NCBI RefSeq assembly: GCF_019059575.1
Contig: NW_024881729.1
Location: 544,406 to 608,405 of the forward strand
Reading direction: 5' to 3'
Source: Amphibalanus amphitrite
Lineage: Eukaryota
Length of the DNA: 64,000 nt
Of the stretch, positions 2,753-63,837 are shown piece by piece; position 1 is the stretch's first letter; each line of letters opens with the position of its first letter. The translations under genes were made by a program, and so were the position numbers. Below the pieces are notes generated by a model. That model made no database searches, was not told the DNA's origin, and saw nothing but the letters and a program-made list of their open reading frames with translations.

Positions 2753-3342
2753 ATGAAGGTGACCGGCACCCCTCCGCGGAAGGTGGGACGTCCTCCCAGC
2801 GACTCCGGCTCCAGGCACGCGGCGCGCACGGCCTCGCCACGACCACGACCGACCAGCCCGGCGGCCAAGGCGGCCCGCGTCGCCTCCCCACAGCCGGCAC
2901 CGCCGCCTCCGGCCGCTGCCCGTACCCTACCGAGCAGCCCTGACCGGCCGGCGGCCCCGGCGGCCGCTGCCGCACCGCCGGCGCCACCGCCAGCCGCCCC
3001 CGCCAAACGGGGAGCCTCTCCGAGCAAAACACCCGCCACCGCCGGCCAGTCGGACTCAGGCAAGGCGCCGGCAGCCTCGGCGGCCAACGGGGCGTCACCC
3101 ACTGCGACAGGCACAACCCCCACGCCAGCCGCGGCGTCGGCGGAGGCCAAACCGCCTTCCGACGAGAAACCGGTGATGGTGGCCGGTCCTCCGCCTCTCG
3201 ACCAGCTCTGGAAGTCGTTCACCCCATCCATGTCCGTGGAAATGATGGCGCTGCTGTTACAGGAGCAGATTCGAGAAATGCGCTCACACCTGGCACGGAA
3301 AATGGCCGATACCGGAGGCCAGAGCAGTCCGGAGATCGTCAG
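2753..3342 (+). CDS. Pro/Ala/Ser-rich low-complexity protein, exon 1 (ATG at 2753; ends AG|GTGGGT, phase 2)
   Basis: ATG opens a reading frame that continues in frame through the 230-aa track ORF. The GTGGGT donor at 3343 joins in frame to the acceptor at 3551. Confidence 0.6.
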
Positions 3343-3551
3343 GTGGGTCTAGATTGTAGAGAGTGAGCGAGGGAGGGCGTGGGTACCGGAGGACAGAGCA
3401 GTACTGAGGTCGTCAGGTAGTTAGAGGGAAGGGAAAGAAGAGAACGAGAGGGAAACACTACACGTCGCGAATGTTAATGATATCGCACATCGGCATGTTT
3501 TGCCTGATGATTCTTCATTAGTTGACATAATCCGTGTTTGTCTGTTTACAG

Positions 3552-6500: not shown

Positions 6501-7033
6501 GTCGACTCTCCGCCCAGAGTCGCTCCCGAGTCAGTCCGGCGGCCGGCGTGACTCCCTGAGTCAGCCCACCTCCAGACATGAACCGGGCCTCGGTCATCTG
6601 TCGCGCGACCTCGGCTCGGCGTCGTCACGTCACGATCTACTCGGTCACGCCGTGTCGCGTCACGATTCGGCCGCCTCCCGGACCGACCCCCTGGCCCAGC
6701 TGAGTCAGGCGGCTGGCCGCGCGCAGCCTCACTACCCTGGTGTGTCGGCTGGGTCGGCGGGCCGCCGCAGCTCGCTGCCTCGTCAGGACTCGGCCCCAAC
6801 CGGCGGTCAGTCGGGACTGTATGCGGCCGGGGAGCCGGCGAGAGATGTGCTCAGTGCAGCGCTGAGTGCGGCGCTCGGCGGCCGGCCGGCTGCTCCGGCA
6901 GCGGCGCGGCCGGCACCGCAGCAGCCGCAGCAGCGACGGATCGTGGACAGCTCCCCGTCCCCAGCCGCGCCAGAGAGGAGTAGTGCGGCAGCGAGTGCTG
7001 CTCAGCGGATGCCTTCGTACTACACTGCGGACG
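3552..7033 (+). CDS. Pro/Ala/Ser-rich protein, giant exon 2 (about 1160 codons)
   Basis: TTTACAG acceptor at 3551. The 1180-aa frame is uninterrupted and ends at the GAC G|GTGAGT donor at 7034. It contains poly-Pro/Ala tracts and an 11-aa repeat array. Confidence 0.65.
5784..6440 (+). repeat. About 20 tandem in-frame 33-nt (11-aa) repeats, PSPRQ(E/D)xH(F/L)(S/N)Q, within exon 2
   Basis: Directly visible periodic translation: SQPSPRQEPHF, NQPSPRQEPHF ... NHPSPRQDHHL. Confidence 0.9.
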
Positions 7034-7341
7034 GTGAGTTGGCCCGCTGGAGTGTCAGACGAGGGAGGGCAATGACATAAACACGTCAACACATTGCTTC
7101 GGTCACGGTCATGAGACATGTGGCAGGCGCATATCTCCCGCTCCATGCTTTGGAGATAGGTTGTTATTTCAATGCGACGAGCCTTGCTACATGACATTTT
7201 TGAACCAATATGCTGCACTTAAGACGCTTTTTGTCTATGGTTCTCACTGATCGGCTTTCTTACTCCGTATACGCTCGACGATAGCGGCCAATCTAACGTC
7301 CTCCGTCTTCCCACCTGACGTTACCCGTCTCTCCTCCGCAG

Positions 7342-7809: not shown

Positions 7810-7926
7810 GTTACCTATCTGACCGTCTGCGTCTTGCCTTCCAGTCTCGCCAGCCGTCGGGCCTGTACCACCAGCAGTTCCTGGACCAATTGGGAGAGTA
7901 CGGCGCCCAGCACCTCAGTCAGGCCG
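7810..7926 (+). CDS. Pro/Ala/Ser-rich protein, exon 4
   Basis: CACTGCAG acceptor and G|GTACGT donor. Translates as YLSDRLRLAFQSRQPSGLYHQQFLDQLGEYGAQHLSQA. Confidence 0.5.
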
Positions 7927-8115
7927 GTACGTGGCGAGAGATGAACGGTTAGCTGCTGGCACACGCTTCAAACTCAGTCTGCACTCTGCACCCTATCCTG
8001 TTAAATGCTGTAACTGACACGACTGTTGCCCGACTCTCATGCTAGACTGTGATGGCTGTTATTACCGCGACCAGGGCGACAGCTTCGTTTGACAGTGACC
8101 TGTCGCCTGTTCCAG

Positions 8116-10785: not shown

Positions 10786-10984
10786 CTTGGCGCGTTTTTT
10801 GATGGTCATGCTGCCGTCGAGCCGGACGAAGCAGTAGCTGCGCATCTGGCAGAGGGTCTCGAACAGGTCGAGTGTCTGCGTGTAGTTGGAGACGAGCACC
10901 ACCTTGTCGCTGGTCTGCGTCTTCACCAGGGCCAGCAGGTAGTCCAGCACCGACACCTTGCCGGAGAGCTCCGGACGGACGCGT
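10786..10984 (-). CDS. RAD54L: RAD54-like, exon 10 ([44 protein letters not shown])
   Basis: Helicase C-terminal domain, motif IV region. CACTAG acceptor; AAG|GTGGGC donor. Confidence 0.85.
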
Positions 10985-11526
10985 CTAGTGGACACAGGGA
11001 GGGGGTATTAGACACATCAGAAGACACAGACACCCTGCCGGACAACTCCGGACGGACTCGCCTGGAGGACAGGGGCGGGTAGATATTAGAGGACAAAGAC
11101 ACCCTGCCGGACAGGTCCGGACGGACTCTCCTGGAGGACAGGGGCGGGTAGATATTGACACAGACACCCAGCTGCCGGACAGCTCCGGACGGACTCGTCT
11201 GGCGGACAGGCGGGTGCGGACTGCGGAATTTCAGATACGAGTGGACGCGGACACGCCTGGTGGACACAGGAGGGGAGAATGATATACTGTGGTGGTGTTT
11301 GCAGGTTAGTCATTCAGTTGCTTCACGGGATGCCCCTACTTTGTAACCTATACGGACCTTGCTAGTTTCCGACAGCCTCTAATATCGCGAGTCCGTCTGG
11401 GCAGGACTGTCATCCCTGACAAACTCACGGAGTATCTGTCTGAGTTCGTCTTGACTCTCTAACTCACTCTGTCGAGTGTCCGTCTGACTGTCTGAGTTAG
11501 CTCTGCCTCCCGAGTCCCCGACTCAC

Positions 11527-11677
11527 TTTGTCGAGTGTCCGTCTGGATAGAGCTGCAGCAGATGGCGCAGCTCACTGCCCGGCTCAGTGACCTTCTCGTA
11601 GATCAGGTCCGGGTGGTTGCACAGCTTCTTCAGACTGGTGATGGCGGACAGCGCCGACTGAGTCGATTTGCCGTGAC
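11527..11677 (-). CDS. RAD54L: RAD54-like, exon 9 (SALSAITSLKKLCNHPDLIYEK..)
   Basis: Conserved SITSLKKLCNHP block. CGCCAG acceptor; AA|GTGAGT donor. Confidence 0.8.
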
Positions 11678-12803: not shown

Positions 12804-13053
12804 CTGTGGAGGGACGAAGAGGGTCGAGAGAGGTCGCTGTGAAAGGCTCCAACATGCGAGTGAGAATTGGAGATATCACCAGCCATATGCCGCGTCGGTC
12901 AGCCGTACTATGCTGTCGCCACTATGGTCGCCACACCCACTCACTGTCGCATTATGTTATCGCCGTTTGTTTATCGGGGTTTCGCCAAACCAAGAGCCAT
13001 CTGCTGCTCGTGACACATCAAGTGCAATATGCTGTCGCCACACCCAGCCTTAC

Positions 13054-13194
13054 CTCATTGACGAAGTGCACCAGACTGAAGTACTCGAGCAGATCGTTCT
13101 GGATGGGTGTGCCGGAGAGCAGGACACGCCGTCGGCAGTTGAGACTCATCAGTGCCGAGTACGTCTGGTTCTCGTGGTTTTTCAGACGGTGACC
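13054..13194 (-). CDS. RAD54L: RAD54-like, exon 6 ([37 protein letters not shown])
   Basis: SNF2 motifs II and III. AATAG acceptor; GAG|GTAAGG donor. Confidence 0.85.
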
Positions 13195-13445
13195 CTATTG
13201 TCAGGGAAGGGAGGAAGACACTGATCAGGCCATCATCCATCGATGTAAGACGATAAAATAAATTTGACATTTGCCACTACTACAAGAGCACCAGCCCTCT
13301 CACTAACCCACTCGACATCCCAATCTGACAATCACCAAATATCTCACCACCGTTCTCACTCCATTACAGAGTCCCAGCTCTTGCACCGACTCTCACATCC
13401 TGCCATCGACCCCTAGTCTCGCCAGTCCTCTCATCACCCTCTCAC

Positions 13446-21779: not shown

Positions 21780-24700
21780 TCGGTAAAGCTGGCGTCACCG
21801 TCGGCGGTAGGTAGGTAGGTTATGTTGTGGGTTCAGTAGGTGGAACTATGGTCATGAGTACCCAAATATAGGAACGTTCCCATTTTTGGGAACGGAGTTC
21901 CCAAATATGGGAACGGGCGTTCCCATTTATGAGAACGGAAGTTAATTTTTCGGCCGTTCGCCCACTAAAACTCATTAGTGCATCACGTCTCAAAAAAGTG
22001 CACGCTAATTTAAGTATCTACTAAGTCGATTCCAGGACAAATCTTCGTATGGCATTTCTTCGTCGCGCAATTCTTCGTCCGCATTTCTTCGTCCGCAAAT
22101 CTTCGTCGGCGCATTTATTCGTGTCGCATAACTTCGTCTCGCATTTCTTAGTAAGCGCAAATATTCGTAGCGCATTTTTTCGTATCCGCATTTCTTCGTA
22201 CGCGCATTTCTTCGTCAAGCATTTTTTCGTCCACGCATTTCTTCGTCTACGCAAATCTTCGTCCGCATTTCTTCGTCCACGCAAATCTTCGTCTGCGCAT
22301 ATCTTCGTCCGCAAATCTTCGTCCCCGCAAATCTTCGTCCGCAAATCTTCGTCCACATTTTTTCGTCCACGCATTTCTTCGTCTACGCAAATCTTCGTCC
22401 GCATTTCTTCGTCCACGCAAATCTTCGTCCCGGCAAATCTTCGTCCGCAAATCTTCGTCCGCAAAACTTCGTCCGCAAATCTTCGTCTGCAAATCTTCGT
22501 CCGCATTTTTCGTCCACGCATTTCTTCGTCCACGCAAATCTTCGTCCGCAAATCTTTGTCTGCGCATATTTTCGTCCGCAAACCTTTGTCTCCGCTATCT
22601 TCGTCTCCGCAAACATTCGTCCACAAATGTGGTTCAATAAAACCATGAAGAAATATCAGACCATCAAGTGATTGACGAATTTAATGCATGGAATGGATGA
22701 TCGAAACTTTTGAAGTCAGGTAGATGAGGTCTGTCAGGTGAAGCTATTGTATTTGGGAGCCGAGAATTGAAACATTCCATATCATTTGTGTCCCGGACAT
22801 TCTTTTTTCGCGGTCGATGAATGACAATACAATCTCTTGTACCCTCGCCGGCATAGGCGGCGGAACGGGGAGGGCACCGGGGCACCGTTCCCCTCTTTAA
22901 TTTGGCCTTTTAACAGTAGCCCTATGGGCGTTGCATGGAAAGAATGGGACTAAAAGTCGGCAGTGCCAAGCCCCCCCCCCCCCCTAATTGAATGTGTTCC
23001 GCCGCTACTGCTCGCCGGACCTATTTGTTTTCTACATATACGCCGGCCGAGGGGGGGGGGGCGGGCACGACCCCCCCCCCCTTCCCCCCATCGCCGTTTC
23101 GCCACTGGTGGAGCTAGCGCGTCGCGGAAAAAAACGAGCGTGTGCGCCGTTACGAGACGCAGAGATTAATACCCGATTTTAAGGCCTTCTAGGTCAGGGG
23201 TCGGCTTACGGCCCGCGGGCCGGATCCGGCCAGGAGGGTGACGGTTCGATCCGGCCCGCGACCATCTGACGTCCGGCCCGCGGCTGGTATCATCGACTTA
23301 CATCGTGTTCCGGCCCGCGGTTCCTTCAGAAATCGACTCCGATATAAAAGTGACTTAAATGTGCTTTGGCACAATAGTTCTTCCTTCGCACACTTCATGA
23401 GTTTATAAACACCATTTGCGGGTGTTTTTGTCTAATTCTACTTCTAGACAAAACTTGCGCGGGCCGGACGTCAGATGGTCGCGGGCCGGATCCAACCGTC
23501 ACCCTCCTGGCCGGATCCGGCCCGCGGGCTGTAAGCCGACCCCTGACCTAGAAGGCCTTAAAATCGGGTATTAACCTCTGCGTCTCGTAACGGCGCACAC
23601 GCTCGTTTTTTCCGCGACGCGCTAGCTCCACCAGTGGCGAAACGGCGATGGGGGGGGGGGGGGTCGTACCCGCCCCCCTCGGCCGGCGTATATGTAGAAA
23701 ACAAATAGGTCCGGCGAGCAGTAGCGGCGGAACACATTCAATTAGGGGGGGGGGGGGCACGGCACTGCCGACTTTTAGTCCCATTCTTTCCATGCAACGC
23801 CCATAGGGCTACTGTTAAAAGGCCAAAATTAAAGAGGGGAACGGTGCCCCGGTGCCCTCCCCGTTCCGCCGCCTATGCCGGCGAGGGTACAAGAGATTGT
23901 ATTGTCATTCATCGACCGCGAAAAAAGAATGTCCGGGACACATGATATGGAATGTTTCAATTCTCGGCTCCCAAATACAATAGCTTCACCGGACAGACCC
24001 CATCTACCTGACTTCAAAAGTTTCGATCATCCATTCCATGCATTAAATTCGTCAATCACTTGATGGTCTGATATTTCTTCATGGTTTTATTGAACCACAT
24101 TTGTGGACGAATGTTTGCGGAGACGAAGATAGCGGAGACAAAGGTTTGCGGACGAAAATATGCGCAGACAAAGATTTGCGGACGAAGATTTGCGTGGACG
24201 AAGAAATGCGTGGACGAAAAATGCGGACGAAGATTTGCGGACGAAGATTTGCGGACGAAGTTTGGCGGACGAAGATTTGCGGACGAAGATTTGCCGGGAC
24301 GAAGATTTGCTGGACGAAGAAATGCGGACGAAGATTTGCGTAGACGAAGAAATGCGTGGACGAAAAAATGCGGACGAAGATTTGCGGACGAAGATTTGCG
24401 GGGACGAAGATTTGCGGACGAAGATATGCGCAGACGAAGATTTGCGTGGACGAAGAAATGCGGACGAAGATTTGCGTAGACGAAGAAATGCGTGGACGAA
24501 AAAATGCTTGACGAAGAAATGCGCGTACGAAGAAATGCGGATACGAAAAAATGCGCTACGAATATTTGCGCTTACGAAGAAATGCGAGACGAAGTTATGC
24601 GACACGAATAAATGCGCCGACGAAGATTTGCGGACGAAGAAATGCGGACGAGGAATTGCGCGACGAAGAATTGCCATACGAAGATTTGTCCGGTTACGTA

Positions 24701-31864: not shown

Positions 31865-32301
31865 GTGAGAGCGGCGCCGCGCTGGGTCTTGCACTGGCGG
31901 CATGCTCACAAACAGTATTACAGCCATGGTGTGGGATTTTGGAAATTATAACTAGCTTCGCTATGTTTAACCATTCATAAACAATCAAGTACCCTCACAT
32001 ATTTCGCTTAGCTTGTAAAAATAATTTATTTTGACACTTGACAGTGGTCTGGTCCATATCAGCGACAATCTGTGCCTCTCGCTGATATGCCGTGCCCCCC
32101 CCCCCCCCCCCACACGCACCAACAGTCTTCCCCTCGCCCTCACAGGTAGTCGTTCCTCACAAGCACTGGCGTCGCTGGCTGGCCCGTGTGACTGTCTCCC
32201 CGCGTCTGACTATGCTCCCGCTGTCTCTGCAGGCGATCGTTCTGCAGAAGTACTGGCGTCGTTTGTTGGGCTGTGTGTCTCTCCCACAGACAGGCCCCAA
32301 T

Positions 32302-34073
32302 CCGACGACCAAATCCGACACCTCGGGACGAAGAAGGCGCCAGGACCGGACCGGGTATGCACCGAACACCTGCGGCACTTCGGACCGACGGCCTACCGGA
32401 CCCTTCTGGCACTCATCAACAGATCGTGGTCCAACCTCGAGACGCCCGCCTCATGGCGACGGGCGACCATCATCCCTATCTTTAAGGCCGGCAAAGACCC
32501 CAAACAAGTGGGCAGCTACCGCCCGATCGCGCTCACGAGTCACATCGCCAAGCTAGCGGAGCGGATGATCGCGGCCCGGACGACCTACCTCATCGAGCGA
32601 GACCGACTGGTGCCCCCCGAACAGGTCGGGTTCCGCCGCGGGAGGTCGGCGGAGGACAGTCTGGCCCGCTTGGTCCAAACGGTTCAAGATGGCTGGAATC
32701 GCCCCAAGCCGAGACGAGGCCCGGAGGATGGCGTGACGGCGGACCGCTTTGTCCTCCTGGCGTTCGACTTCTCCCGTGCCTATGACACGATCGATCACCG
32801 GATGTTGCACCTGAAGCTCCTCAAGCTCCTCCCCAGATGTCTCGCGACCTGGAAATTCCGGTTCCTTCGCGGCAGGCGGGCCCGCGTAGAGGTCAACGGC
32901 GCGCACAGCAGCGAGCGCGTGTTCCGCGCGGGCCTGCCGCAGGGCTCGGTCCTGGCACCGACCATCTACACGCTCTGGGCGGCGGACCTTATCGAGACCC
33001 TGCGGAACGCCTCGGACCGCACGGACGTCCTGATGTATGCGGACGACAGGGCCACACTGAGCGCTGGAGCCACCGTAGAGCTTGCGGTGGCTCGCGCCCA
33101 GAAGTCGGCCGACGCCCTGGCCCGATGGGCAAGGCACTGGAAGATGTCCATCGCCGGACAGAAGACCCAGGCGCTGCTGCTGACTCAGCGGAGCAGGGAC
33201 GAGCGCGGCGTGCAACTCCTGGCGAACGGCACGCAGGTCACCGGTGGCACCAGCCTACATCTTCTGGGGGTGACCTTCGACAGACTTCTACACTTTAAAG
33301 ACCACTGCGACTCTCTGCTGCGGCGGAAGGTCCGGCCGCGGACGGCACAGCTGCGGAGGATGACCGGCCGGGCCTGGGGTCTCCGCGAGGCGCAGCTCAG
33401 GACAGTCGCGAACGGGTATGTCCGGGGAGCCCTTGAATACGCAGCGGGTGCCTGGCTCCCGGCCGCGTCCCCGTCACACGTTCAGCTGGTGGAGCGCGAG
33501 CTGCTGGCGGCAGCCCGGGTGGTGACCGGATGCCCAAGGTCCACCCCCAGGGATCCCCTGCTGGCCGAGGCTGGCATCCCTTCAGCATGGTCCACCAGGA
33601 AGACGCTGGCCGCGCGAACGCTCTGCCGAGCGCTCGCCCTGCCGGAGGACGACCCTCTTCGCCGCGTCGCGGAGGCCGACCCACCCACTCGACTGCGGTC
33701 TACCACCGGCTGGCGACAACTGGGGCGATCGGCGCTGATCGAGGCGGGCGCCGAGGGAGTGACGGTGGAGCCGCGCCTCGAGGTTCCCCTCCTCCCGTGG
33801 ACAACCTGCCGCCCGATCGCCTTCAATCTGGACGTGGGACCCGGCGGTCGTCGAGCCTCCTCCAACGAGACGCGACGAGAGGCCGCGCGGCAGCACCTGG
33901 CGGCGCTCCCAGCCCAGGCCACGTGGATTTGGTCCGACGGCTCTGCGGACGCTGGGGTCAGGCGAGGCGAGGGGGCGGCGCCATCATCTTTACCGCGTCG
34001 GGGGAGACTCTCGAGGTTGAGGTGGTGGCGGGAGACCTCTGCTCCAGCACCCGTGCGGAGCTGTTCGCCCTGA
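32302..34073 (+). pseudogene. LINE RT-domain reading frame (frameshifted relative to the downstream RNase H/CCHC part at 33957-34801)
   Basis: The two overlapping track ORFs (680 aa and 423 aa) together cover RT, RNase H and the zinc finger. Confidence 0.6.
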
Positions 34074-34837
34074 GGGCGGCGCTGGAGCGGGTCCGGGATG
34101 AGCCGTCCCCCGCCCCGCTGGTGGCGTGCTCTGACTCACGAGCCGCCCTGAGCCTCCTCAGCGCGGGAGCGGCCGCCCAGACCTCCACTTTCGGCGCGGC
34201 GATCTGGAGGACGCTGCTGGACATTGCCGAGCGCCGGCAGGTGACCCTGCAGTGGGTCCCTGCTCACTGCGGGCTGGCGGAGAACGAGCGCGCTGACGCC
34301 CTGGCCAAGCAAGCGGCCACCCTGCCCCAGGGCGCCGTGCCCTCGGACGCTCGGCCCCTGACACGGGCAGTTCATCGGACGACCACACGTCAGTGGCGCG
34401 AAAACTGGCCCGACTCCTTTTTCAAGGCTATCTTCGGGAGCACCCTGCCGCTCCCCATCCCCGGAGAGGACCGAGAGGCCGCCATCTCGGTGCACCAGTG
34501 GAGGGTGGGCCACTGGGGCCGCTCGCTCCAATACCTGCACCGGATCGGCCGCCACCCCTCCGTGGCATGCCTGCAGTGCCCCGATAAGCGGTGCCCCACG
34601 GCGCTCTGCGCCGTGTGCCGGGAAGAGGCGGACGTGCCGGAGCACGTGTTGCTCCGCTGCCCGGCCCTCGCTGGCGCCCGCCTGCGGCTAACTGGCAGCA
34701 TTCACGTCGACCCGTCGCGGCTGCGGGACGCCGACCTGGTGGCTGCCTTGGAGGCCGGCTACCTTCGCCATAGGGAGCCTCTCGGCTATGGTCCTCCGTA
34801 AGGAGGTCCCAGGGGGAACAACAACAACAACAACAAT
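32302..34837 (+). mobile_element. 5'-truncated non-LTR retrotransposon (LINE) with RT, RNase H and a C-terminal CCHC; I/R1/LOA-type domain order; frameshifted
   Basis: RT motifs KAPGPD, FDFSRAYDTIDH and YADD. The RNase H block (TRAELFALRAALE) is in a different frame after a roughly 1-nt indel near 33960-33980. CCHC is CLQCPDKRCP..C..C. A (CAA)6 tail sits at 34819-34836. A 10-bp target-site duplication AGGCCCCAAT lies at 32292-32301 and 34838-34847. Confidence 0.75.
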
Positions 34838-34959
34838 AGGCCCCAATTGTCTGACGATGTTCCCTCTCCACCACAGGCGATCGTTCTACAAAAATACTGG
34901 CGCCGCTGGTTGGCCCGTGTTACTCCCCTGTCTGACGATATTCACGCTCTCCACCACAG

Positions 34960-35079
34960 GCGATTCTTCTACAGAAGTACTGGCGCCGCTGGCTGGCCCG
35001 TCGCCGGGTACAGCGGATGGCCAGGGAGCGGGATGTCGTGCTCCAGTGGATTGTGGACGACGCAGAACGGCGCAAACAG
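34960..35079 (+). CDS. IQUB-like, IQ-motif exon (AILLQKYWRRWLARRRVQRMARERDVVLQWIVDDAERRKQ)
   Basis: CCACAG acceptor; CAG|GTCAGA donor, phase 0. It matches the IQ consensus and is the last member of a tandem array of degenerate copies. Confidence 0.6.
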
Positions 35080-35322: not shown

Positions 35323-35589
35323 GCTCGGCTGAAGCGTCGCGCCGGAGTCGTCGAGCGGAAGATGGACCCCAAGAGCAAGAACGACTTCGACATTCTGTTC
35401 AGCTCGCTGGAGGCCTGGCGGAAGAAGGCCATCGCCTACTGTTACTCCACCAAGTCGGGTGGTGAGCTGAAGGCGGCGCTGTGTCAGCTGCTGGAACAGG
35501 AGGCGGAGATGCTGAAGGCCATCAACGGCCATCAGAGCCGCGCGGCCGCCTGCGGACAGGCCAAACGCATACACCGGCTGCTGGAGAAG
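35323..35589 (+). CDS. IQUB-like, exon (ARLKRRAGVVERKMDPKSKNDFDILFSSLEAWRKKAIAYCYSTKSGGELKAALCQLLEQEAEMLKAING..)
   Basis: CCCAG acceptor; AAG|GTACGT donor, phase 0. Confidence 0.6.
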
Positions 35590-37387: not shown

Positions 37388-37796
37388 GTCAGCGGAGGAT
37401 TACTGACGGGTCAGTGGTACTCTAGTATATGTGAGAGAGGACAGCCTGCAGTCGAAGTACGGGGAGCGTGCGTGGGGTTTGGTCACTGGCAAGTCTTTCC
37501 TCGCTACATACGGTGTGAGAAAGGTGTACGACTTTCGCTACCCATGTGTGTGCGAGGCCTACGTGTGACTTATGATCTGGGTATGGGACAGGTTAATGAG
37601 TCTGACACATGTATTTGTTTCTGTGACAGGAGTCTGACTTCCGCCACCTGGTGCTGTCGCTGTGGGGCGGCCAGTCCTGTCTGACATACCACCTCTGTCT
37701 GTGTGTTACAGGAGTCTGACTTCCGTCACCTGGTGCTGTCGCTGTGGGGCGGTCAGTCCTGTCTGACATACCACCTCTGTCTTTCATGTGTTACAG

Positions 37797-37982
37797 GAGT
37801 CTGATTTCCGTCACCTGGTGCTGTCGCTGTGGGGCGGCCAGTCCTGCCTGAGCGCCGATCCGGACCTCTATGAGCTGCTGCTCTGCCGCTGGGACGTGGA
37901 ACAGCCCTGGACGCCTTGGAACTGCGTCCTGCTCACCAGAGACGAGACCGAGGCGCACTACAAGCTCGGAAAGCCGCAGCAG
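37797..37982 (+). CDS. IQUB-like, exon (ESDFRHLVLSLWGGQSCLSADPDLYELLLCRWDVEQPWTPWNCVLLTRDETEAHYKLGKPQQ)
   Basis: TGTTACAG acceptor; CAG|GTCAGT donor. Two degenerate tandem copies of the acceptor plus exon start lie immediately upstream, at 37621-37796. Confidence 0.6.
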
Positions 37983-38278
37983 GTCAGTGATGACACACCT
38001 GGAGGTGCGCGTGCGTTCTTAAAGTGGATGACGATCCAGGAACGAGACGGCTATACCAATCATGATTTCAGTGTCTCGTTATACTTCTCGCGTGACCAGT
38101 GTGTGCTTTGTCCAAACTCTCCCACCTCCAGCTAGCAGTACGGCCTGTAATATATGTATCAGGTACCGGTGTGCTCCTCTCCTTTCTTCCCAGTAGCGGT
38201 ACTGACGAGTGTGACCGTACCTCATCTCCCTCACAGCGGTACTGACCGTTTTGTGGCTGTACTCCTCTTCCCCGGCAG

Positions 38279-38449
38279 CGGTACGGGCCGGAGCTGTGTC
38301 AGCGGGTGCGTCTGCGGCACGTGGCCGCCAGTCGCTACTTCTGCCACCTGCCGGCCATGGTGGCCCGCCTGGAGGCCGGGCTCACGGAGCGCGAGACGGG
38401 GCCGCCGTCACCGGGCGCCTGCCGCCGGCCGGCCGCCGCGCCCGCCTGA
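38279..38449 (+). CDS. IQUB-like, terminal exon (RYGPELCQRVRLRHVAASRYFCHLPAMVARLEAGLTERE..*)
   Basis: CCCGGCAG acceptor; TGA at 38447-38449. It is preceded by two pseudo-copies of the acceptor plus exon start. Confidence 0.45.
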   Translation, partial: RYGPELCQRVRLRHVAASRYFCHLPAMVARLEAGLTERETGPPSPGACRRPAAAPA

Positions 38450-39083
38450 CCTGCCGAGAGGCCACCACCGCCACCCGGGACCTCCAGCTGACGGAGAAAA
38501 CCGGGCGGCACGGACAACGCACCGCTCCGACGCGCCTTGTGATAAATTAGCGCCACGTCAGGCCGGGCTCGAACGAAGCGAACGTAGTCGAGAGATCTGA
38601 CTAGTCATGTAAATCGGTGTCTGTGGCTGCATGTTTGTGCCAGGTGATATAATGCACGGGTTTGGCGCTTGCGTTGGCGGTCTCTCGTTATTTTGGAGGG
38701 GTGTATTGTGGCATCTCTGCTGGTGTAGTAAATATCATGCTGATAGATATCCTGCAAAATCGTGTATTCCATGCCAAGCAATTGTCGTTTTGTCTGCTTG
38801 TCTTTTGTCCTTGGACCAACAACGCCGCATTTACTCAGTTGAATAAAATTGCGTGCTTTGCCTATTTGAATTTTCACAACAAAATCCAGAACCAGGGAAA
38901 AGCCACGCAGCTTTTGAAAGCTCTCATCACCAGAGGTTAGTTTCATTCTCTTCAGATTACGCTTGTCGAAGTGCTAGGACAACGGTGAAAGCTCAACCGA
39001 TCATATATCCCGCGTGTGTTCTCCACTCGGATTCTTCCACAAAAGTTGTAGACCGACGCAAACGCCGATTGTATAATAGGCAG

Positions 39084-39404: not shown

Positions 39405-42400
39405 TCAGTTGTCTAGCTCCAGTCGCACGATCTTGGTGACCGGTCGTTTGTACACACCCTTCCGCGTGTTCACCTCCACGACGCGGACGAGGCCGTCCTG
39501 ACCGGGGAACGTTCTGGCGACTCTGCCCAGGGGCCACGAGCCTCGAGGCACCGATGAGTCTGCGATCAGCACCATCTCTCCTTCACGCAGATTGCGTGAC
39601 ATCTCCGTCCACTTCTGTCTTGTCTGAAGACTTGGTAAGTATTCTCTGATCCAGCGCCGCCAGAACTCTGTGTTCAGCTGCTGGAGTCGACGCCACCTTT
39701 TTCTGGCGTTCTCGGGCGTGTCAGCGTCTTCAGAGCAGATATCCAGCTGGGTGTGACCGAGCAGGAACGCTGCCGGGGTGAGCGGTGGCGCATCAGACGG
39801 GTCAGATGAGACCGCGGTCAGTGGCCTGGTGTTCAGAAGCGCCTCCGCGCGGCAGAACGCGGTCATCAGTTCTTCATCTGTCAGATGGGCGGCTTCTAAA
39901 GTTCTTCGTAGTGCCCGCTTCGCACTTTTTACCATCGCCTCGCAGCCACCATTGAAATGAGGCGCTCCCGGAGGAATGAACTTCCAGTCTATGTAGAAGT
40001 GAGCGGTTTGTCTCTTGATCACTTCTTGGTCCAGAGCTCCGACTAGCTTCCGTAGCTCGCGACTTGCTCCAACAAAATTCTTCCCGTTGTCGGAGATGAT
40101 CTCAGACGGCCTCCCTCTTCGAGCGATGAATCTCAGGAATGCTCGCAGAAAACTGTCAGTGTCGAGTCCGCAGGCCATCTCCAGGTGCACCGCTCTACTC
40201 TGTAAGCACAGGAAGACGCAGAGGTAGCGTTTCAGCCGAGTCTTCCCTCTTCCCTGTCTGGTCTCGAACGGTCCTGCGAAGTCCACCGCGCAGTGACTGA
40301 ACGCGCGGCAGGAATACATCACTTCAGCTCCAGTCTTCGGCGCCATCATCTGCTTCTCTGGCTTCTTGGATCTCTTGATGCACTCTGTACAAGATCTGAT
40401 GCATTTCTTGACTTCTTCTCTGGCACTTATCACCCAGAACCGCTGGCGAAGTTCCGATATGGTGTGCTCAACGCCGAGCTCGTGTTCACCCTGCTCATGC
40501 ACATGACGTACCAGGAGACGGGTCACTTGATGGCCCTTTGGGAGAAGCACTGGGTGCTTCACATCAAATGGCAAGTCGCTTCTCTGGAGGCGTCCGCCGA
40601 CTCGCAGTAGTCCATGGTCATCTACAATCGGACACAGTCTGCGGATGCTGCTGCTTTTGAAGACTTGACCCTGTTTGCTTTCACCGGACGGGACTGCGAC
40701 TTGTGCTTCCAGCTGTCTTCGCTCCTTGGCAAAACATTCCTGAGCTCGCAGGAGCCAGAATGTCTCTGCAGAAGACATCTCCCGCCTGTCCAGTGATGAT
40801 GATGTGCCGTCGTTGTGTTCATCTGGGCACTCTCCTCTTGTTAGTCTCTTCAGTTTCTCGATAAACCTTAGAACCCACGCCGTCACCCTGACCAGCCTCA
40901 TCCAGCTTGAGAAGTGACTTGGGTGTAGCCGGAGGTCATCTTGAGTTTCTTTGATCAGAGTGCTGTGTACTGTCTTCGTCTTCTTCATCTCGCTCCTGTC
41001 GAATGGCTCTGATTGTAGATCTCTTGGCATTGGCCAGTTTTCTCGCTCTTCCACAAGAAATGCAGGGCCCGACCACCACAGGTCACTGGACTTCAGAACT
41101 TCCAGTGTTACGCCTCTGCTGGGAAGATCTGCTGGGTTTTGATTTCCGGGAACATGCTGCCATTGCTCAGGATCTGTCACTTCCCGAATCTCTGATATCC
41201 GATGCGCCACGAACGACTGGAACTGCTTGACTTCATTTCTGATCCAACAGAGCACGTTGATGGAGTCAGACCAGAACAGCACATCTGATATCTGGATCCT
41301 GAATGCTGCACAGGCCTTCTTCGCCAGTCGCAGACCCAGGAGGGCAGCCATCAGCTCAAGACGAGGGATGCTGACCTTTCTAGAGCGTGGGGTGACTCTG
41401 ACTCTTGCTAGAGCCAATCTTGCGGCAACGCCATCTTCACTTGTGGTCACGACGTAGACTGCGGCTGCATATGCCTGCTCAGAGGCATCTGAGAAGGCGT
41501 GTAGCTTCTGAGCTGTAGCCTTGGAGAAGGGGTGGATGCATCGGGGCACTAATAAAGAGCTCACGCGCTCCAGCTCCGTCACCCATTCCGCCCACTTGCG
41601 CTTCATGTCGGCGGGCAGCTCATCGTCCCATTGAAGACCTCGGGACCAAGTTTCCTGGAATAGGATCTTGCTTCGGACGGTAAATGGACTCATCAAGCAT
41701 AGAGGATCGAAGATGGCTGCGAGCGTCTTGAGACAGATCCTCTTGGTAGGCTTTGGCGTCATGTTCTTCTGAATGGTAGCATTGCTGCTAATGCTCAGCT
41801 TGTCTTCATCCGCATTCCAAACGACTCCAAGTGCATTGGCACGAGTTTGAGGGCCATCTTCGATAGTGAAACTTGACTCTTTGGCTCGCTCTTCTTCTGG
41901 TATGCTGTCCGTCACTGAGCTGCTACTGCTTCTCCATTTTCTTATCTTCATGCCGGCCAACTGCATCAGCTCTGTGAGTTGCTTTCTGGCTTCCTTCGCT
42001 TCATCTTCACTTTCGAATGAGACGAGGGCATCGTCCATGTAGAACGAGTCCTTGATCGTGTTGGAAGCGAGAGGATATCGTGAAGCGTGCTGCTTGGCAT
42101 TCTCCTTCATCGCGAACTGGGCTGCAAATGGTGCTGCAGCGTTTCCGAACAGCCACCTTTGTGCTTCATAGATATCTGGCTCTCTTCCAGCTTCGCAGTT
42201 GCGCCAGAGCACACGATGGAACTTCTGATCACCATCGGGTAGCTTCACCTGGAGAAACATCTCCGCGACGTCTCCAGTCAGAGCGATCGCATGACGGCGA
42301 AATCCCAGCAGGACTTCTATCAGGTCGTTACAGATGGATGGTCCAGGATAGAGTTCATCGTTCAGACTTCTCCCTTCAAATTTTGCAGCTGCATCGTACA

Positions 42401-44963
42401 CTACCCGTATCTTCGTCGTGGCGCGATCTTCCTTTACTACCGGGAAGTGGGGCAAGAACCAGCCGTCTAAGGATGCAGCCTCTCTATCTTCAGGTACGAT
42501 CTTCTTAAGGTATCCTTTAGATACGTAATCTTCAAAATTCGCATTGTACTTTTCTAGAAGAGACCTGTCTTCATTCTTTATCAGGCTCTGCTCAGTTTTT
42601 CTTAATCGGCTCACAGCGTATCCGAAGTTTCCACTCAACTCGGGCTGATCACGACGCCAAGGTACTGCTACCTCATATCGCTCGCCGTCGTACTTGAGTG
42701 AGTCTTGTGCCTTCTTAAGTGCGGACTTTTCCTCATACGAGAGAATCTTCTCATTCTCGTTTCTCACTCCGAGTAGTTCCAAGTCGGTCATAGCATGGAT
42801 GGCGTCTATTTCATCCTGATTGTTCACTGATACGTGAGTCCGTAGCGTCTTGCTGAAGTTTTTCTTCTTCGCATCTTCCACAGGCCCGAAGGCTGTCCAG
42901 CCGAGCGGGGTTTTCACTCCCACAGGTTCATGTGCTTCGCCTTGTCTTGTCTCCAGAGGAAGGAACAGCGACGTCGTAGAAGCCGTCAGTCCGATCAGCA
43001 TATCGATCCCCTGTCTTCGTGAAACGTTGGGGAAAGATATGTTCTTCAGATGGTTCCACTTGCTCTTCGTCATGTTCCAGTCAATTTTGGCTGAAGCGCT
43101 GGAGAGGTCATTAATGACGTACACGCCAATGCTGGTCTTGAACGGGCCGATTGTGGAACACATTTCCACCTCCGACTTCTTCATGTTCACTTGACTGCTG
43201 CCTTCCACTGTTCCCAGCTCAAACTGCTCTGGAACACCCTGGAGACCCAGCTCCTTAGAAGCGGCGTCCGTCAAGAAACTGGCATCCGAGCATGGATCCA
43301 GCAGGGCGTTGACGATAAGAGATCGTCCATTCGCCTTCACCTTCACGGGAACTGTCTGAAAAACGACGCGGCCTGAGTTCTGAGTCGCTGAAGCAGCGGT
43401 CCGATGAGTTAGCTCCCCTTCATGCTGTTCCTGAACTGGCAGTCTGGCAGTAGTATGACTTTGTGTCATCGCAGGGGTAGAATCACCGCGAGTCGCGTGG
43501 AGAAGACTATGATGGCTGCCACCGCATCCTGCCACTTGACATCCTGGGAACTTCCTGCAGCTTAATCCACGATGAGTGCCAGCCAGACAGCGAAAACATA
43601 TTCGCTTCGTCTTGCAGTAGCTGTACCGGCTGCCGACTGTCCACTTCTGGAACAGTGGGCAATCTGGAAGTTGGTGTTCTTTCTCGCAATAGAGACAGCT
43701 TGATGCCCCATGTTGGCTCTGTCTCTCTGTCTTGGTACTCCAGGTCTTCTTCATTTTCCTGGGAGAGTTCGTCTCTTCCTTCTTCATTCGGGAGCTGCTT
43801 GACATTTCTAGAGCTTCTTGTTCGTATTGGGCTTCTTCTGTGAGCCAGGTGGCGAACATCTTCAGATTGTCCTTCGCTCTTTGTCCTTGGATCCATCTTC
43901 GGTAGTTCTTCAGAAATGTCACATGTAGCTTTTCTTTGACGAGGATGTAGTAGGCGGACACGTCGGCCAAATCGCCTGCTGAGCCATGCTCTTCAAGATT
44001 TGTCACCAGGCTTTGAACCCGATCAGCGAGTTCCTCCAAATCTCTCGTAGCGCCCGGACGGACTGGCCTGATGCTCCGAATCTCCTCCAGCTGATGCCTG
44101 ATCCGTCTGCTGACGCCGCCGTACTTGCGTTCCAGCTCTGCCATGGCCTTCGTGAACCCAATGTCTGACGGTCTGTACCTGTCTACTAGTTTCAGAGCGT
44201 CACCTGCGAGACAGTTCTTGAGTTGCATCATTTTAAATTTTCCAGGAACGTTTTCGATGGTTACAAAGGCGTCAAACGTAGCTCGCCAGTCCTCGTATCT
44301 GTTTGTCTCGCCTGTAAAGACTGGAAGCTGTGGTCTCTTCAGTCCGTAGTTCGCCCAGTCGACCTTCACTCTCTCGTTATCTCGTGGCGACCGAGTGCTG
44401 TGACGTCGACCTTCGACTTCAGGTGAGGCTGCTTGCTCTTCTGGTTGCTGAAGCGCATCAGTTTCTTCAGTGACTGACTGATGCGACTCCGTTTCGTGCC
44501 TCAGGGCCTTCGTCTCGTTGCTACGCTTGTCTAGAGCTGCAGAAACTACAGTTCTCACTGATTTATTTGCCAGCCGCAGAGTCTTGGATATTTCTCGCTG
44601 AATATCGTCGTATTCTTCCCACGGATCTTCATCCTCCTCTTGTCCACTAGACATCTTGTTGGCCATCTCTTCCACTATGTTCAACAACTCATCGCTTGCC
44701 TTGTCTAGCTCAGAACCTATCTGCGAGATCTGCGAGACAGTTAGCTCACTGGTTTCAATCAGTGAATGCAGTCTGTTCTGTCCATCGCGTAGATCCCGAA
44801 GTAGTCTCGACTTCTTTCTTCTTAAATTCACTTCAGTTGTCCTCACATGGCTTTCTGTAGAAGTGGTAGTTGACATTGTCCCTTCAGTTCCATCCGTTAC
44901 TTCTTCTTGATTCTGACTGGTTTCAGCTTCACCTTGCTGCGTCTTCTTGCGCCTGTTACCCAT
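39405..44963 (-). CDS. Gag-Pol polyprotein (1852 aa) of the BEL/Pao element
   Basis: Uninterrupted ORF with diagnostic motifs: PQLPVFTGE..W..F..F (Gag DUF1759), CLYCEKEHQLPDC, LLDPCSDASF (protease), FYMDDALV (RT), DASEQAYAAAVY (RNase H), and H..H..C..C plus DFAGP..E (integrase). Confidence 0.85.
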   Translation of the reverse strand: MGNRRKKTQQGEAETSQNQEEVTDGTEGTMSTTTSTESHVRTTEVNLRRKKSRLLRDLRDGQNRLHSLIETSELTVSQISQIGSELDKASDELLNIVEEMANKMSSGQEEDEDPWEEYDDIQREISKTLRLANKSVRTVVSAALDKRSNETKALRHETESHQSVTEETDALQQPEEQAASPEVEGRRHSTRSPRDNERVKVDWANYGLKRPQLPVFTGETNRYEDWRATFDAFVTIENVPGKFKMMQLKNCLAGDALKLVDRYRPSDIGFTKAMAELERKYGGVSRRIRHQLEEIRSIRPVRPGATRDLEELADRVQSLVTNLEEHGSAGDLADVSAYYILVKEKLHVTFLKNYRRWIQGQRAKDNLKMFATWLTEEAQYEQEALEMSSSSRMKKEETNSPRKMKKTWSTKTERQSQHGASSCLYCEKEHQLPDCPLFQKWTVGSRYSYCKTKRICFRCLAGTHRGLSCRKFPGCQVAGCGGSHHSLLHATRGDSTPAMTQSHTTARLPVQEQHEGELTHRTAASATQNSGRVVFQTVPVKVKANGRSLIVNALLDPCSDASFLTDAASKELGLQGVPEQFELGTVEGSSQVNMKKSEVEMCSTIGPFKTSIGVYVINDLSSASAKIDWNMTKSKWNHLKNISFPNVSRRQGIDMLIGLTASTTSLFLPLETRQGEAHEPVGVKTPLGWTAFGPVEDAKKKNFSKTLRTHVSVNNQDEIDAIHAMTDLELLGVRNENEKILSYEEKSALKKAQDSLKYDGERYEVAVPWRRDQPELSGNFGYAVSRLRKTEQSLIKNEDRSLLEKYNANFEDYVSKGYLKKIVPEDREAASLDGWFLPHFPVVKEDRATTKIRVVYDAAAKFEGRSLNDELYPGPSICNDLIEVLLGFRRHAIALTGDVAEMFLQVKLPDGDQKFHRVLWRNCEAGREPDIYEAQRWLFGNAAAPFAAQFAMKENAKQHASRYPLASNTIKDSFYMDDALVSFESEDEAKEARKQLTELMQLAGMKIRKWRSSSSSVTDSIPEEERAKESSFTIEDGPQTRANALGVVWNADEDKLSISSNATIQKNMTPKPTKRICLKTLAAIFDPLCLMSPFTVRSKILFQETWSRGLQWDDELPADMKRKWAEWVTELERVSSLLVPRCIHPFSKATAQKLHAFSDASEQAYAAAVYVVTTSEDGVAARLALARVRVTPRSRKVSIPRLELMAALLGLRLAKKACAAFRIQISDVLFWSDSINVLCWIRNEVKQFQSFVAHRISEIREVTDPEQWQHVPGNQNPADLPSRGVTLEVLKSSDLWWSGPAFLVEERENWPMPRDLQSEPFDRSEMKKTKTVHSTLIKETQDDLRLHPSHFSSWMRLVRVTAWVLRFIEKLKRLTRGECPDEHNDGTSSSLDRREMSSAETFWLLRAQECFAKERRQLEAQVAVPSGESKQGQVFKSSSIRRLCPIVDDHGLLRVGGRLQRSDLPFDVKHPVLLPKGHQVTRLLVRHVHEQGEHELGVEHTISELRQRFWVISAREEVKKCIRSCTECIKRSKKPEKQMMAPKTGAEVMYSCRAFSHCAVDFAGPFETRQGRGKTRLKRYLCVFLCLQSRAVHLEMACGLDTDSFLRAFLRFIARRGRPSEIISDNGKNFVGASRELRKLVGALDQEVIKRQTAHFYIDWKFIPPGAPHFNGGCEAMVKSAKRALRRTLEAAHLTDEELMTAFCRAEALLNTRPLTAVSSDPSDAPPLTPAAFLLGHTQLDICSEDADTPENARKRWRRLQQLNTEFWRRWIREYLPSLQTRQKWTEMSRNLREGEMVLIADSSVPRGSWPLGRVARTFPGQDGLVRVVEVNTRKGVYKRPVTKIVRLELDN

Positions 44964-59599: not shown

Positions 59600-59963
59600 G
59601 TAAGTCAATGGGGCTGTGAGGCTAGTCAGCCTCTTCACACTACCATTAATTATGAGGCCGGTGAGAAGTGCATTAGGCTAGTCAGGAACGTATGACCGAG
59701 GTTTTTACCAGGGGTGGCGGACCGTGCTGACGAGTAATGACTGGTGTGACTGATGACTGATAAGTGACTGATATGACTGTTGTCACGGCAGCTGAACGCC
59801 TCACTGAGGTGTTACTGGAGTTCTGTCACGCCGGCTATGATCTTTCGTGTTTGACGCTGGCAGGAGTTTTGTCGCGACAGCTATAATGTGTAGTTTGTCT
59901 AACGTCGACAGGATTTCTGTCGCGCCGGCTATGATTTGACTAACTGGCTTCTGACGTCGACAG

Positions 59964-60095
59964 GAGTTTTGTCGCGCCGGCTACCTGCGTAAAGAGGAGG
60001 AGGTGGTGAAGGGTGTCACGGTGCTACGGTTCTTCTGGGGAGACGCCGCTTCTGTGGGTGTCGACGCCGTCGACCTGCTCAAGTTCGTCTGTACG
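59964..60095 (+). CDS. NSMCE3: NSMCE3-like, exon 5 (EFCRAGYLRKEEEVVKGVTVLRFFWGDAASVGVDAVDLLKFVCT)
   Basis: CGACAG acceptor; ACG|GTGAGA donor. Two degenerate tandem copies of the acceptor plus exon start lie upstream. Confidence 0.75.
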
Positions 60096-62644: not shown

Positions 62645-62926
62645 CTTTTTGAGCCAGGCCTCGGCGGGCACCAGGTCGTGGTCGTCCATGGCCAGCATGC
62701 CCAGGTTGAAGTAGACCCTGTCGAGTCCGACGGCCGACGGTCGGAGCGCGATGAGCCGGTGGAGCCGCTGGTAGGCGAGCGGCCGCCGCTCCGGGGGCCC
62801 CTCCTCCTGGATAATCACCGCCGAGTTGAGCAGCGCCTGCTGGTGGTCGGGGTCGTGCTCGAGCGCTCTGTCCAGGTAGGCCTGCGCCTCAGCCTGGAGG
62901 CCCTGCTCCAGACACACCACGCCCAG
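62645..62926 (-). CDS. TMTC-like, TPR exon (LGVVCLEQGLQAEAQAYLDRALEHDPDHQQALLNSAVIIQEEG..LGMLAMDDHDLVPAEAWLKK)
   Basis: CTGTTACAG acceptor; AAG|GTGAGT donor. It is preceded, in the transcript 5' direction, by two pseudo-copies. Confidence 0.55.
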
Positions 62927-63837
62927 CTGTAACAGACGAGAGAAGAGGAGGGAGGGGTGTTAGAGCATACAACTCCAGTCCCTGGGCCTGGAGGCCCTGC
63001 TCCAGACACACCACGCCCAGCTGTAACAGAGAGGAGTAGGGGGAGGGAGGGATGTTAGAGCACGCAACTCCAGTTCCTGGGCCTGGAGACCCTGCTTCAG
63101 ACACACCACGCCCAGCTGAGGAAGGGAGAGGAGATGGTGTGTTAGACAACCAAATACTGCGGTAGTCTCACAGCGAAATGAGCCCACGAGAAGAAGCGAA
63201 GACGGAGAGGAGGATGTAATCATTACGTTTACTAATCAATCACGTTTTGTTCTGTTGCGAGCTACACAACATAGCGTCTGGCACACAGCCCGTCAGTGAA
63301 GATAAGCCCACGCCGTGTGTGCTAGGCGGCCACCCCATCTCACATCATTTTCTCGGGAATCGGATGGTCCGCAGCCCCCACACCCCGTCCCAGTCGCCAT
63401 GGCGGCCCGGGTGGTAACACGACGCCTGACGCCGTATCGCGGGCCAACAGACGTCCGGCCATCGGCCCGCACTGCACACAACAGTGTGGTAAAGGAAATA
63501 CTACCACCAGACACCGCCCAGCAACACTGAACGCCCCAGCCCCCACCGACAGTGTGTATACTGTCTACATAACCACAGCCACAACAGGCTCCAACAGCCA
63601 GAACAGGGGGAGGGGTGGGTTGGGCCCCCGGCAATGGATAGTTAAATGACACGCTGAATGACTGGCAGGCTAGCCCACTGGCTGGCTGGCTAGCTGGCTG
63701 GCTGAAATAACTAACGACTAAATGAACAACGGACTGACTCACGGAAAATGACTGCTGTAAGGGAAGAGATCGGATTATCAGTAACACCCATTGACCAATG
63801 TAGCACCGACTGGTCCCGTTCACTCACGTTATAGTAG

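Follow-up and report, generated by a model that had tools for sequence, protein, structure and literature searches.

Immediately upstream of the last coding exon of a gene of the barnacle Amphibalanus amphitrite, a 3' splice site joined to the start of the exon seems to be written several times in a row, which raises the question of where the additional copies came from and whether splicing makes use of them. The locus was analysed within a window of 64,000 nt (assembly GCF_019059575.1, contig NW_024881729.1, 544,406-608,405, forward strand), and all coordinates below are positions in this window unless another contig is named. We consider it likely that the copies are the decayed remains of tandem duplication, and that the duplicated segment spanned the 3' splice site of the last intron in the IQUB gene. 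The surrounding pattern of similar arrays at exon-intron junctions merits genome-wide attention more than this array itself.

The IQUB gene and its last exon

The reading frames around the array match the Pfam profile IQUB (E=6e-34), and a protein search with a rough gene model returned the IQ and ubiquitin-like domain-containing protein of A. amphitrite (94% identity) and a protein of Pollicipes pollicipes (76%). The RefSeq protein XP_043230429.1, together with others of identical sequence, matches the window exactly, exon by exon. We take IQUB to be a cilia gene. Exon 10 (37797-37982, positive strand) is followed by a donor GT at 37983, which opens a 296-nt intron containing the array, and exon 11 (38279-38449, positive strand) encodes RYGPELCQ...AAAPA with the stop codon at 38447-38449. 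The exact protein mapping places the exon 10/exon 11 junction at ...KLGKPQQ/RYGPELCQ, so the AG at 38277-38278 is the acceptor in use. In the Pollicipes ortholog the junction of exon 11 lies at the equal position (...ARPLE/RYGPEQ). Two claims made from the letters alone, that the terminal exon is IQUB-like and that only the last of the repeated acceptors opens it, thus agree with the profile match and with the protein mapping, which sets the exon start at 38279.

The repeat array before exon 11

Read directly, the sequence across the array runs ...ttcttcccagtag/CGGTACTGACgagtgtgaccgtacctcatctccctcacag/CGGTACTGACcgttttgtggctgtactcctcttccccggcag/CGGTACGGGCCGGAG..., the part after the last slash being CGGTACGGGCCGGAGCTG in its longer form. 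The sequence-only reading had described three tandem versions of an acceptor followed by CGGTAC, about 40 bp each, and this was borne out: the 8-mer AGCGGTAC occurs three times on the positive strand, at 38195, 38235 and 38277, in steps of 40 and 42 nt. Both strands of the window together hold five copies, against 1.29 expected (128 kb), a count reached by none of 100 shuffles; the remaining two copies are both on the negative strand. The element AGCGGTACTGAC, recovered by a repeat search, is exact at 38195 and 38235 and matches at 10 of 12 positions at 38277, with the same 40- and 42-nt spacing.

Two pseudo-units were delimited on the positive strand. The first, u1 (38197-38236), consists of the head CGGTACTGAC, a pyrimidine tract and a decoy AG at 38235-38236, and the second, u2 (38237-38278), contributes with its 3' part the working 3' splice-site region, comprising the pyrimidine tract and the true AG. 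A further unit, u0 (38158-38196, positive strand), may precede them and would be the oldest; it carries the head AGGTACCGG, a strong pyrimidine tract and decoy AGs at 38192-38193 (CAG) and 38195-38196 (TAG). Its similarity to u2 is marginal (p=0.04), and MAFFT aligns it with u1 and u2. Another candidate upstream of u0 (38122-38157) was rejected as non-significant against every other unit. Each unit closes with a pyrimidine tract and CAG or TAG, in accordance with the splice-site consensus.

Both pseudo-units contain TACTGAC, which corresponds to the branch-site consensus. In u1 (38200-38206, positive strand) the putative branch A is at 38205, 31 nt before the decoy AG of this unit, and in u2 (38240-38246, positive strand) it is at 38245, 33 nt before G 38278; the latter copy also supplies an in-frame TGA. 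Since the TACTGAC head lies 31-33 nt upstream of the next AG, u2 most likely provides the branch point of the true acceptor.

Intron ends commonly share a pyrimidine tract and AG, and CGGTAC might recur by accident, so chance resemblance had to be weighed. Several results favour chance: the exon-derived part of exon 11 alone, compared with introns, scored 15, below the background maximum of 19 obtained from other introns; the whole-junction test gave p ~0.04; and TRF did not report the array even down to a score of 30. Against this, the three copies of AGCGGTAC stand in register, and u1 and u2 align locally over 36 columns (score 21, p=0.001, 2000 shuffles), although their likeness is only ~70%. 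The head of the exon and the head of u2 are identical at 10 of 12 positions, in register directly after AG; by our own binomial estimate this has a probability of ~4e-5 in fixed register, while free local alignment gives p=0.08. A matching pseudo-copy in Pollicipes and far stronger arrays of equal design nearby, both described below, also argue against accident, which is very improbable and largely refuted. The array is therefore confirmed chiefly through register, 8-mer count and u1-u2 similarity.

In a generic lag scan the array scored 20-24, a value attained by ~0.1-0.6% of shuffled windows. Because of this low score and of its absence from the TRF output, the exon-11 array is regarded as old and degraded, and it is far weaker than the 82-nt array at 37622-37851. 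The exon-derived part of its units is short, 6-12 nt being certain and perhaps 24 nt.

The tetranucleotide GTAC is found ~7 times in 150 nt (38139-38284, own count), against ~0.6 expected from base frequency, with a spacing of partly ~20 nt within the array. Gene conversion, with the exon head and the pseudo-heads exchanging sequence, may account for this excess. The idea that the palindromic GTAC takes part in an RNA structure hiding the decoys was rejected, as the corresponding motif in a related taxon (L002, below) is GTTAC.

Consequences of decoy use

Splicing to the AG at 38192-38193 leads to a TAG stop codon, and splicing to 38195-38196 or 38235-38236 leads to CGG TAC TGA, i.e. Arg-Tyr-stop. 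Rare use of the decoys would thus yield IQUB ending in ...QQ or ...QQRY, without the C-terminal 56 residues, which are conserved in Pollicipes, fish and wasp. The strength of the acceptors was assessed with a crude position weight matrix built from 22 other barnacle acceptors (training mean 11.1, minimum 6.2), on which the true site scored 12.6 and the decoys 8.1 (38237), 6.5 (38194) and 2.8 (38197). Judging from this 22-site matrix and from the annotation, the upstream AGs are probably silent decoys. They endanger the conserved C-terminus of IQUB only if used, and the annotation suggests otherwise; the consequence for IQUB itself is small.

Another explanation might be that the upstream AGs function as alternative 3' splice sites, giving a tissue-specific truncated IQUB (...QQRY and stop) which escapes nonsense-mediated decay, the stop codon being in the last exon. 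The acceptors of u1 and u2 would lead to the identical Arg-Tyr-stop ending, and the decoy at 38237, with its score of 8.1, falls inside the range of real acceptors. However, the annotated isoforms X1 and X2 have one common, full C-terminus, both via the last AG, and decoy use would remove a segment whose conservation extends to fish and wasp. The outcome of decoy use also varies between taxa, being a stop in the window, a frameshift of +43 nt in L002 and an in-frame addition of +51 nt (17 codons) in Pollicipes, and a conserved alternative isoform is disfavoured because of these differences. We find this explanation quite unlikely.

Other junction arrays in the window

A similar architecture was found at seven further junctions of the window. 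The sequence-only reading had spoken of the same duplication before the last exon, and in fact clearer versions are carried by exon 10 (units of 82-85 nt) and by the IQ exon (IQUB exon 4). The exon-10 array (37622-37796, positive strand; TRF 82 nt x 2.8, score 395) contains two pseudo-copies, ~96% alike, with pseudo-exon starts at 37630 and 37712, and its unit consists of ~30 nt of the intron end and ~52 nt of the exon start. The beginning of exon 10 scored 80 against its own intron and at most 17 against other introns. At the breakpoints of this array, the branch-site region and the exon share the microhomology G(C/T)CTGA. The array of the IQ exon (32146-34959, positive strand) has pseudo-starts at 32146, 32233 and 34877 before the real start at 34960, with an own-intron score of 59 against at most 16 for other introns. 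Between its second and third pseudo-copies sits a retrotransposon (32302-34838, positive strand), and because this insertion lies inside the array, part of the array predates it. Truncated at its 5' end, this non-LTR retrotransposon encodes RVT_1 and RNase H domains, ends in an (AAC)n tail and is flanked by the 9-nt target-site duplication GGCCCCAAT at 32293-32301 and 34839-34847.

In a RAD54-like gene on the negative strand, an acceptor array (10984-11280; TRF 69 nt x 2.8) contains pseudo-exon starts at 11256, 11198, 11130 and 11061 before the real start at 10984, in an exon whose encoded residues match RAD54 fragments. The end of the preceding exon carries a donor duplication (11427-11547, negative strand), where the sequence CAGACGGACACTCGACAAA/GTGAGT, with the real GT at 11526-11525, is repeated 59 nt and then 39 nt deeper in the intron. 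A TPR-repeat gene (negative strand) has an acceptor array at 62926-63150 (TRF 95 nt x 2.4), with pseudo-exon starts at 63115 and 63020 and the real start at 62926; its exon matches TPR_2 from profile position 7. Two more cases involve exons recognised by splice motifs and an open reading frame only. One is an acceptor array at 59800-59963 (positive strand) of three pseudo-copies with the pattern CTAAC..gtcgacag/GAGTTTTGTCGCGCCGGCTA, followed by a likely real exon start at 59964, for which Pfam gave no match. The other is a donor duplication at 3311-3418 (positive strand), where the exon end ...CCGGAGATCGTCAG/GTGGGT (exon end 3342, GT at 3343-3344) recurs 74 nt downstream, with a pseudo GT at 3417-3418.

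An unbiased lag scan of the window at a score of at least 28 yielded 27 clusters. Once repeats in coding sequence, satellites of transposable elements and low-complexity runs (microsatellite-like or GC-rich) had been set aside, the strong unique-sequence repeats with a lag of 40-100 nt were all located on junctions. Three exceptions remained in the scan: a repeat of 32 nt in intergenic DNA, a weak pair inside an intron (31475), and an exact 14-mer pair at 12909/13028, with a lag of 119, which was left unclassified. Transposable-element and intergenic DNA, which makes up about half of the window, contained no such arrays. The chance of such placement, roughly estimated from this small sample, is ~1e-6 to 1e-7 if arrays are uniform over non-exonic DNA, ~1e-3 if they are confined to genes, and ~0.02 if a slower decay of exon-anchored copies is generously allowed. 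Nearly all unique-sequence tandem arrays with a unit length of 40-95 nt include a splice junction in the ~104 kb of barnacle DNA considered here.

As arrays of this kind could arise in assembly, when divergent haplotypes are set in tandem where conserved exons meet diverged introns, this origin was considered too. Barnacles are extremely polymorphic, a pi of ~0.05 being given for Balanus glandula (preprint 10.64898/2026.04.27.721231); records list the IQUB protein for two contigs of the assembly, and copies within young arrays differ by ~4%. Such an artefact is nevertheless extremely unlikely: the arrays comprise 3-23 copies rather than two and occur in three independent assemblies, the array of the IQ exon holds a retrotransposon with its own 9-nt target-site duplication, and u1 and u2 are only ~70% alike.

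Comparison with related taxa

In Pollicipes (contig L001), a pseudo-copy of the exon-11 head is located 51 nt upstream of the real acceptor, matches at ~20 of 24 nt (own count) and is preceded by a pyrimidine tract and TTAG. L002, a contig of a related taxon from an independent ENA assembly, is 90% identical to the window in the nucleotide sequence of exon 11 and shows a matching layout before it, consisting of AG, head, CTGAC (30 nt ahead of the AG), tract and ccggcag. Its head and exon both contain GTTAC, which occurs three times in 50 nt, whereas both contain GGTAC in the window. A pseudo-copy occurs in three taxa, and in the window and L002 its head shares the motif of the exon; this could point to gene conversion, or to selection, instead of neutral decay. 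A metagenome scan with the 24-nt TACTTCTGCCACCTGCCGGCCATG, which is conserved in all three taxa, gave no matches.

Pollicipes contig L001 also contains G-rich donor arrays. One begins at the IQ-exon donor of IQUB (12924-13412, 53 nt x 9.2, units ending in GCGG(C/T)TG/GTGAGCC), and two start at exon 5' splice sites of RAD54 (3848-4245, 44 nt x 9; 4621-4749, 41 nt x 3.2). Moreover, an extra intron at 13790-14155 of L001 splits one A. amphitrite exon (35323-35589 of the window). It is a GC-AG intron with the donor GCAAGT, and its acceptor and 14 nt of exon start are duplicated ~95 nt upstream, so that the intron may have been gained, or may have grown, by duplication.

Contig L003, from a related barnacle, aligns collinearly with the window, and identity in the exons is 87-89%. 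Its donor array at 593-1520 (75 nt x 12.4, adjacent copies matching by 97%) has a unit made of the last 57 nt of a RAD54 exon followed by GTGAGT..., and the same exon end carries a different, 59-nt repeat in the window. At the RAD54 acceptor that has four pseudo-copies in the window, L003 has no array. Conversely, L003 contains an acceptor array at 5888-7159 (56 nt x 23, negative strand), the ortholog of which (7839-7930 of the window) is single-copy. Since the presence of arrays and their units differ between the window and L003 at shared junctions, the arrays appear to be born repeatedly at junctions and to turn over fast between taxa.

These comparisons bear on the possibility that the repeats form a cluster of cis-elements retained by selection, in which modules of branch site, pyrimidine tract and AG (U1 sites at donors) would aid the recruitment of U2AF/U2 or U1 at weak junctions, or would tune splicing or intron retention as decoys. 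Such a function is suggested by the pseudo-unit ahead of exon 11 in A. amphitrite, L002 and Pollicipes, by the identity of head motif and exon head within each taxon (GGTAC in the window, GTTAC in L002), by the RAD54 pseudo-acceptors, which keep ccag and good tracts while the real site has a weaker ctag, and by the independent origin of arrays at one junction in two taxa. However, only 66 of the last 93 nt of the intron could be aligned between the window and L002, with many indels, those columns being 82% identical, whereas 451 of ~555 nt of the 3' UTR were aligned (74%). The poorer alignment of the intron end, compared with the 3' UTR, gives no indication of additional constraint. Arrays are also gained and lost between close taxa, unit lengths and breakpoints vary from case to case, and no stable RNA structure was predicted (fold z-score +1.18). 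Selection of this kind is unlikely, and the exon-11 array is an ordinary relic and probably a neutral one.

Two control genes outside barnacles were included. The IQUB gene of the fish Genypterus blacodes (L006) has one junction array among 24 junctions, and the wasp IQUB gene has none among six. In the fish, intron 9 (3812-3914 of L006, 103 nt) consists largely of two extra copies of the exon end (TCCTGAC.GC.CTCAAA...AG) and the donor GTGACAACAAACAC. This weakens any claim that the arrays are found in barnacles only; they are not exclusive to barnacles, only dense in the barnacle DNA examined.

Two barnacle-like contigs (L004 and L005) were discarded as comparison loci, both being intronless RAD54 retrocopies and thus uninformative. 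Their amino-acid identity to the query is 85% and 77%, respectively, and one is visibly decayed. As processed retrocopies, they show reverse-transcriptase activity on a RAD54-like mRNA.

Possible origin of the array

According to the duplication we favour, the duplicated segment would have comprised the 3' end of the intron (pyrimidine tract and AG included) and the first 6-24 nt of exon 11. Only the last copy would have stayed joined to the exon, and the upstream copies would have become intronic pseudo-acceptors. A first event may have produced one pseudo-unit, which was duplicated again after it had acquired TGAC; the second duplication is suggested because u1 and u2 share this derived TGAC. 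TACTGAC, which matches the branch-site consensus and stands 31-33 nt ahead of the following AG, would have developed from the head contributed by the exon or from the duplication junction there. The head of u2 would be either a mutated exon head or the result of a breakpoint after CGGTAC which joined it to the TGAC branch site of the intron itself. The order of these events is our inference. In the resulting intron, the spliceosome would normally take the exon-proximal, last AG.

This duplication is favoured by the clear arrays of equal design at IQUB exons 4 and 10, the RAD54-like and TPR exons and 59.9 kb, which are younger than the exon-11 array, and it is weakened by the shortness of the similarity between u2 and the exon head. 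A tandem duplication over a boundary necessarily leaves the working junction exon-proximal and buries the other copies in the intron, and this geometry was observed in all 14-15 arrays. The mutational origin might be slippage or microhomology-mediated repair, as the breakpoints of the exon-10 array in the G(C/T)CTGA microhomology suggest, followed by unequal exchange.

Several other origins were rejected. Reverse transcription of a lariat intermediate would give units starting just after the branch A, while the observed units hold the whole TGAC or begin at most ~25 nt upstream of the branch motif. An RNA structure hiding the decoys is at odds with a fold that is no better than shuffles (z=+1.18), and a structured intronic RNA, such as a snoRNA or riboregulator, with the same z-score and with no Rfam match in the window. 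Duplicated, mutually exclusive exons do not fit units that contain 6-24 nt of exon head and in-frame stops and have no downstream donor.

Relation to known systems

The closest precedent found is the 37-bp minisatellite of intron 7 of the human F7 gene (IVS7), the first unit of which spans the exon 7/intron boundary and in which the 5' pseudo-sites could in principle work and are normally silent (PMC1557585). As in F7, the present arrays are head-to-tail, with a terminal unit containing the authentic junction, a row of near-identical pseudo-sites and use of the exon-proximal site. The donor-type arrays (11.5 and 3.3 kb of the window; 44 nt x 9 and 53 nt x 9 in Pollicipes; 75 nt x 12 in L003) are its direct counterparts. 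The exon-11 array likewise shows repeats beyond chance, a terminal unit that forms the authentic boundary and a splice-site consensus in each unit, as judged by the crude 22-site matrix. It differs from F7 in being located at a 3' splice site, with the last copy real instead of the first, so that the 5'-to-3' scanning rule of F7 is not directly transferable; it is also old and degraded rather than homogeneous, and the region holds many such arrays instead of an isolated one. As to variation in copy number, look-ups by the two annotated isoforms turned up no contig with a second A. amphitrite copy of the locus, and sister arrays differ greatly between taxa. Literature searches for acceptor-type junction arrays, or for their abundance in barnacles, yielded F7 and general papers on intron gain, and the absence of a description from the library searched is not proof of novelty.

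Gao and Lynch (PNAS, 2009) are said to have treated tandem genomic duplication as a source of new introns. Such duplication within genes gives rise to new introns and splice sites according to Rogers' AGGT model (Hellsten et al. 2011, PMC3265369; Yenerall and Zhou 2012, PMC3443670). As in this model, a short internal duplication before exon 11 added a splice-site copy, and the extra material is spliced out with the protein unchanged. Unlike the model, it lengthened an existing intron and added decoys without creating a new one. Intron gain of the AGGT type was rejected for this locus, the intron position being common to Pollicipes and L002 and most of the 296-nt intron not being exon-derived; the GC-AG intron of Pollicipes with its duplicated acceptor is closer to the model.

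Duplicated 3' and 5' splice sites reportedly compete in cis, the adjoining authentic exon sequence favouring a site, in the work of Reed and Maniatis (Cell, 1986). The arrays resemble those constructs in that tandem sites compete, and truncated exon heads (6-52 nt) would make poor decoys. The constructs were engineered and studied in vertebrate extracts, whereas the present arrays are natural, multi-copy and from an arthropod. Some likeness to NAGNAG acceptors is given by several close AGs, and CAGTAG (38191-38196) is formally a NAGNAG, but the spacing of the units is 40 nt, not 3. The Pollicipes decoy TTAG/GTACAG resembles a zero-length recursive splice site; for A. amphitrite a recursive site was rejected, since AG/CG/GTAC leaves 2 nt and an intron of only 296 nt offers no rationale.

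Wider pattern of junction arrays

Arrays of up to 23 copies exist in the related barnacle contigs, some with 9-23 near-identical splice sites. Simple tolerance fails to explain why nearly all unique-sequence arrays are placed on junctions. We tentatively suggest, as a possibility well short of an expectation, that barnacle genomes have a process or a selective filter by which minisatellites are founded and enlarged specifically at splice junctions, donors as well as acceptors, with fast turnover and repeated origin. This junction bias is the interesting part. Candidate causes might be breakage or template switching at the boundary of exon/intron homology during repair between highly diverged haplotypes, stalling of replication at pyrimidine tracts or G-runs of intron ends, or lesions coupled to transcription or splicing. 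A refinement of the original description is that junction duplication is not confined to IQUB.

If the suggestion is true, the arrays would be natural cis-competition experiments and would show a spliceosome that reliably chooses the exon-proximal site among many identical ones. They may serve as a natural test bed for splice-site choice, chiefly of 3' sites, for which no natural counterpart of F7 was found described, and possibly give a view of a mutational process linked to the boundaries of exons and introns in a hyper-polymorphic genome. In practical terms, gene predictors and short-read assemblers can be led astray by arrays of this kind.

Other features of the window

Several repeats and transposable elements were recorded besides the junction arrays. 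An intact ORF of 1852 aa (39405-44963, negative strand) looks by eye like a retrotransposon gag-pol, and fragments of reverse transcriptase are present at 26.7-27.6 kb and 52.3-53.1 kb. Two arrays of ~590 nt with units of 16, 30 and 46 nt (22038-22622 and 24099-24688), mutual reverse complements ~1.5 kb apart, form a large inverted repeat and are probably the termini of a transposable element. The ORF 3538-7080, encoding a low-complexity protein of 1180 aa, contains coding 33-nt (11-residue) repeats of the form SPRQE/D.H... (5782-6405, positive strand), and its L003 ortholog has a nucleotide identity of 64-78%, lowest over these repeats. The 3' UTR of IQUB (38450-38650 against 265-470 of L002) contains conserved blocks, for example TGTGATAAATTAGCGCC and GATCTGACTAGTCATGTAAATC..TGTGGCTGCATGTTTGTGCC; these blocks surpass the intron end in conservation and may be regulatory elements.
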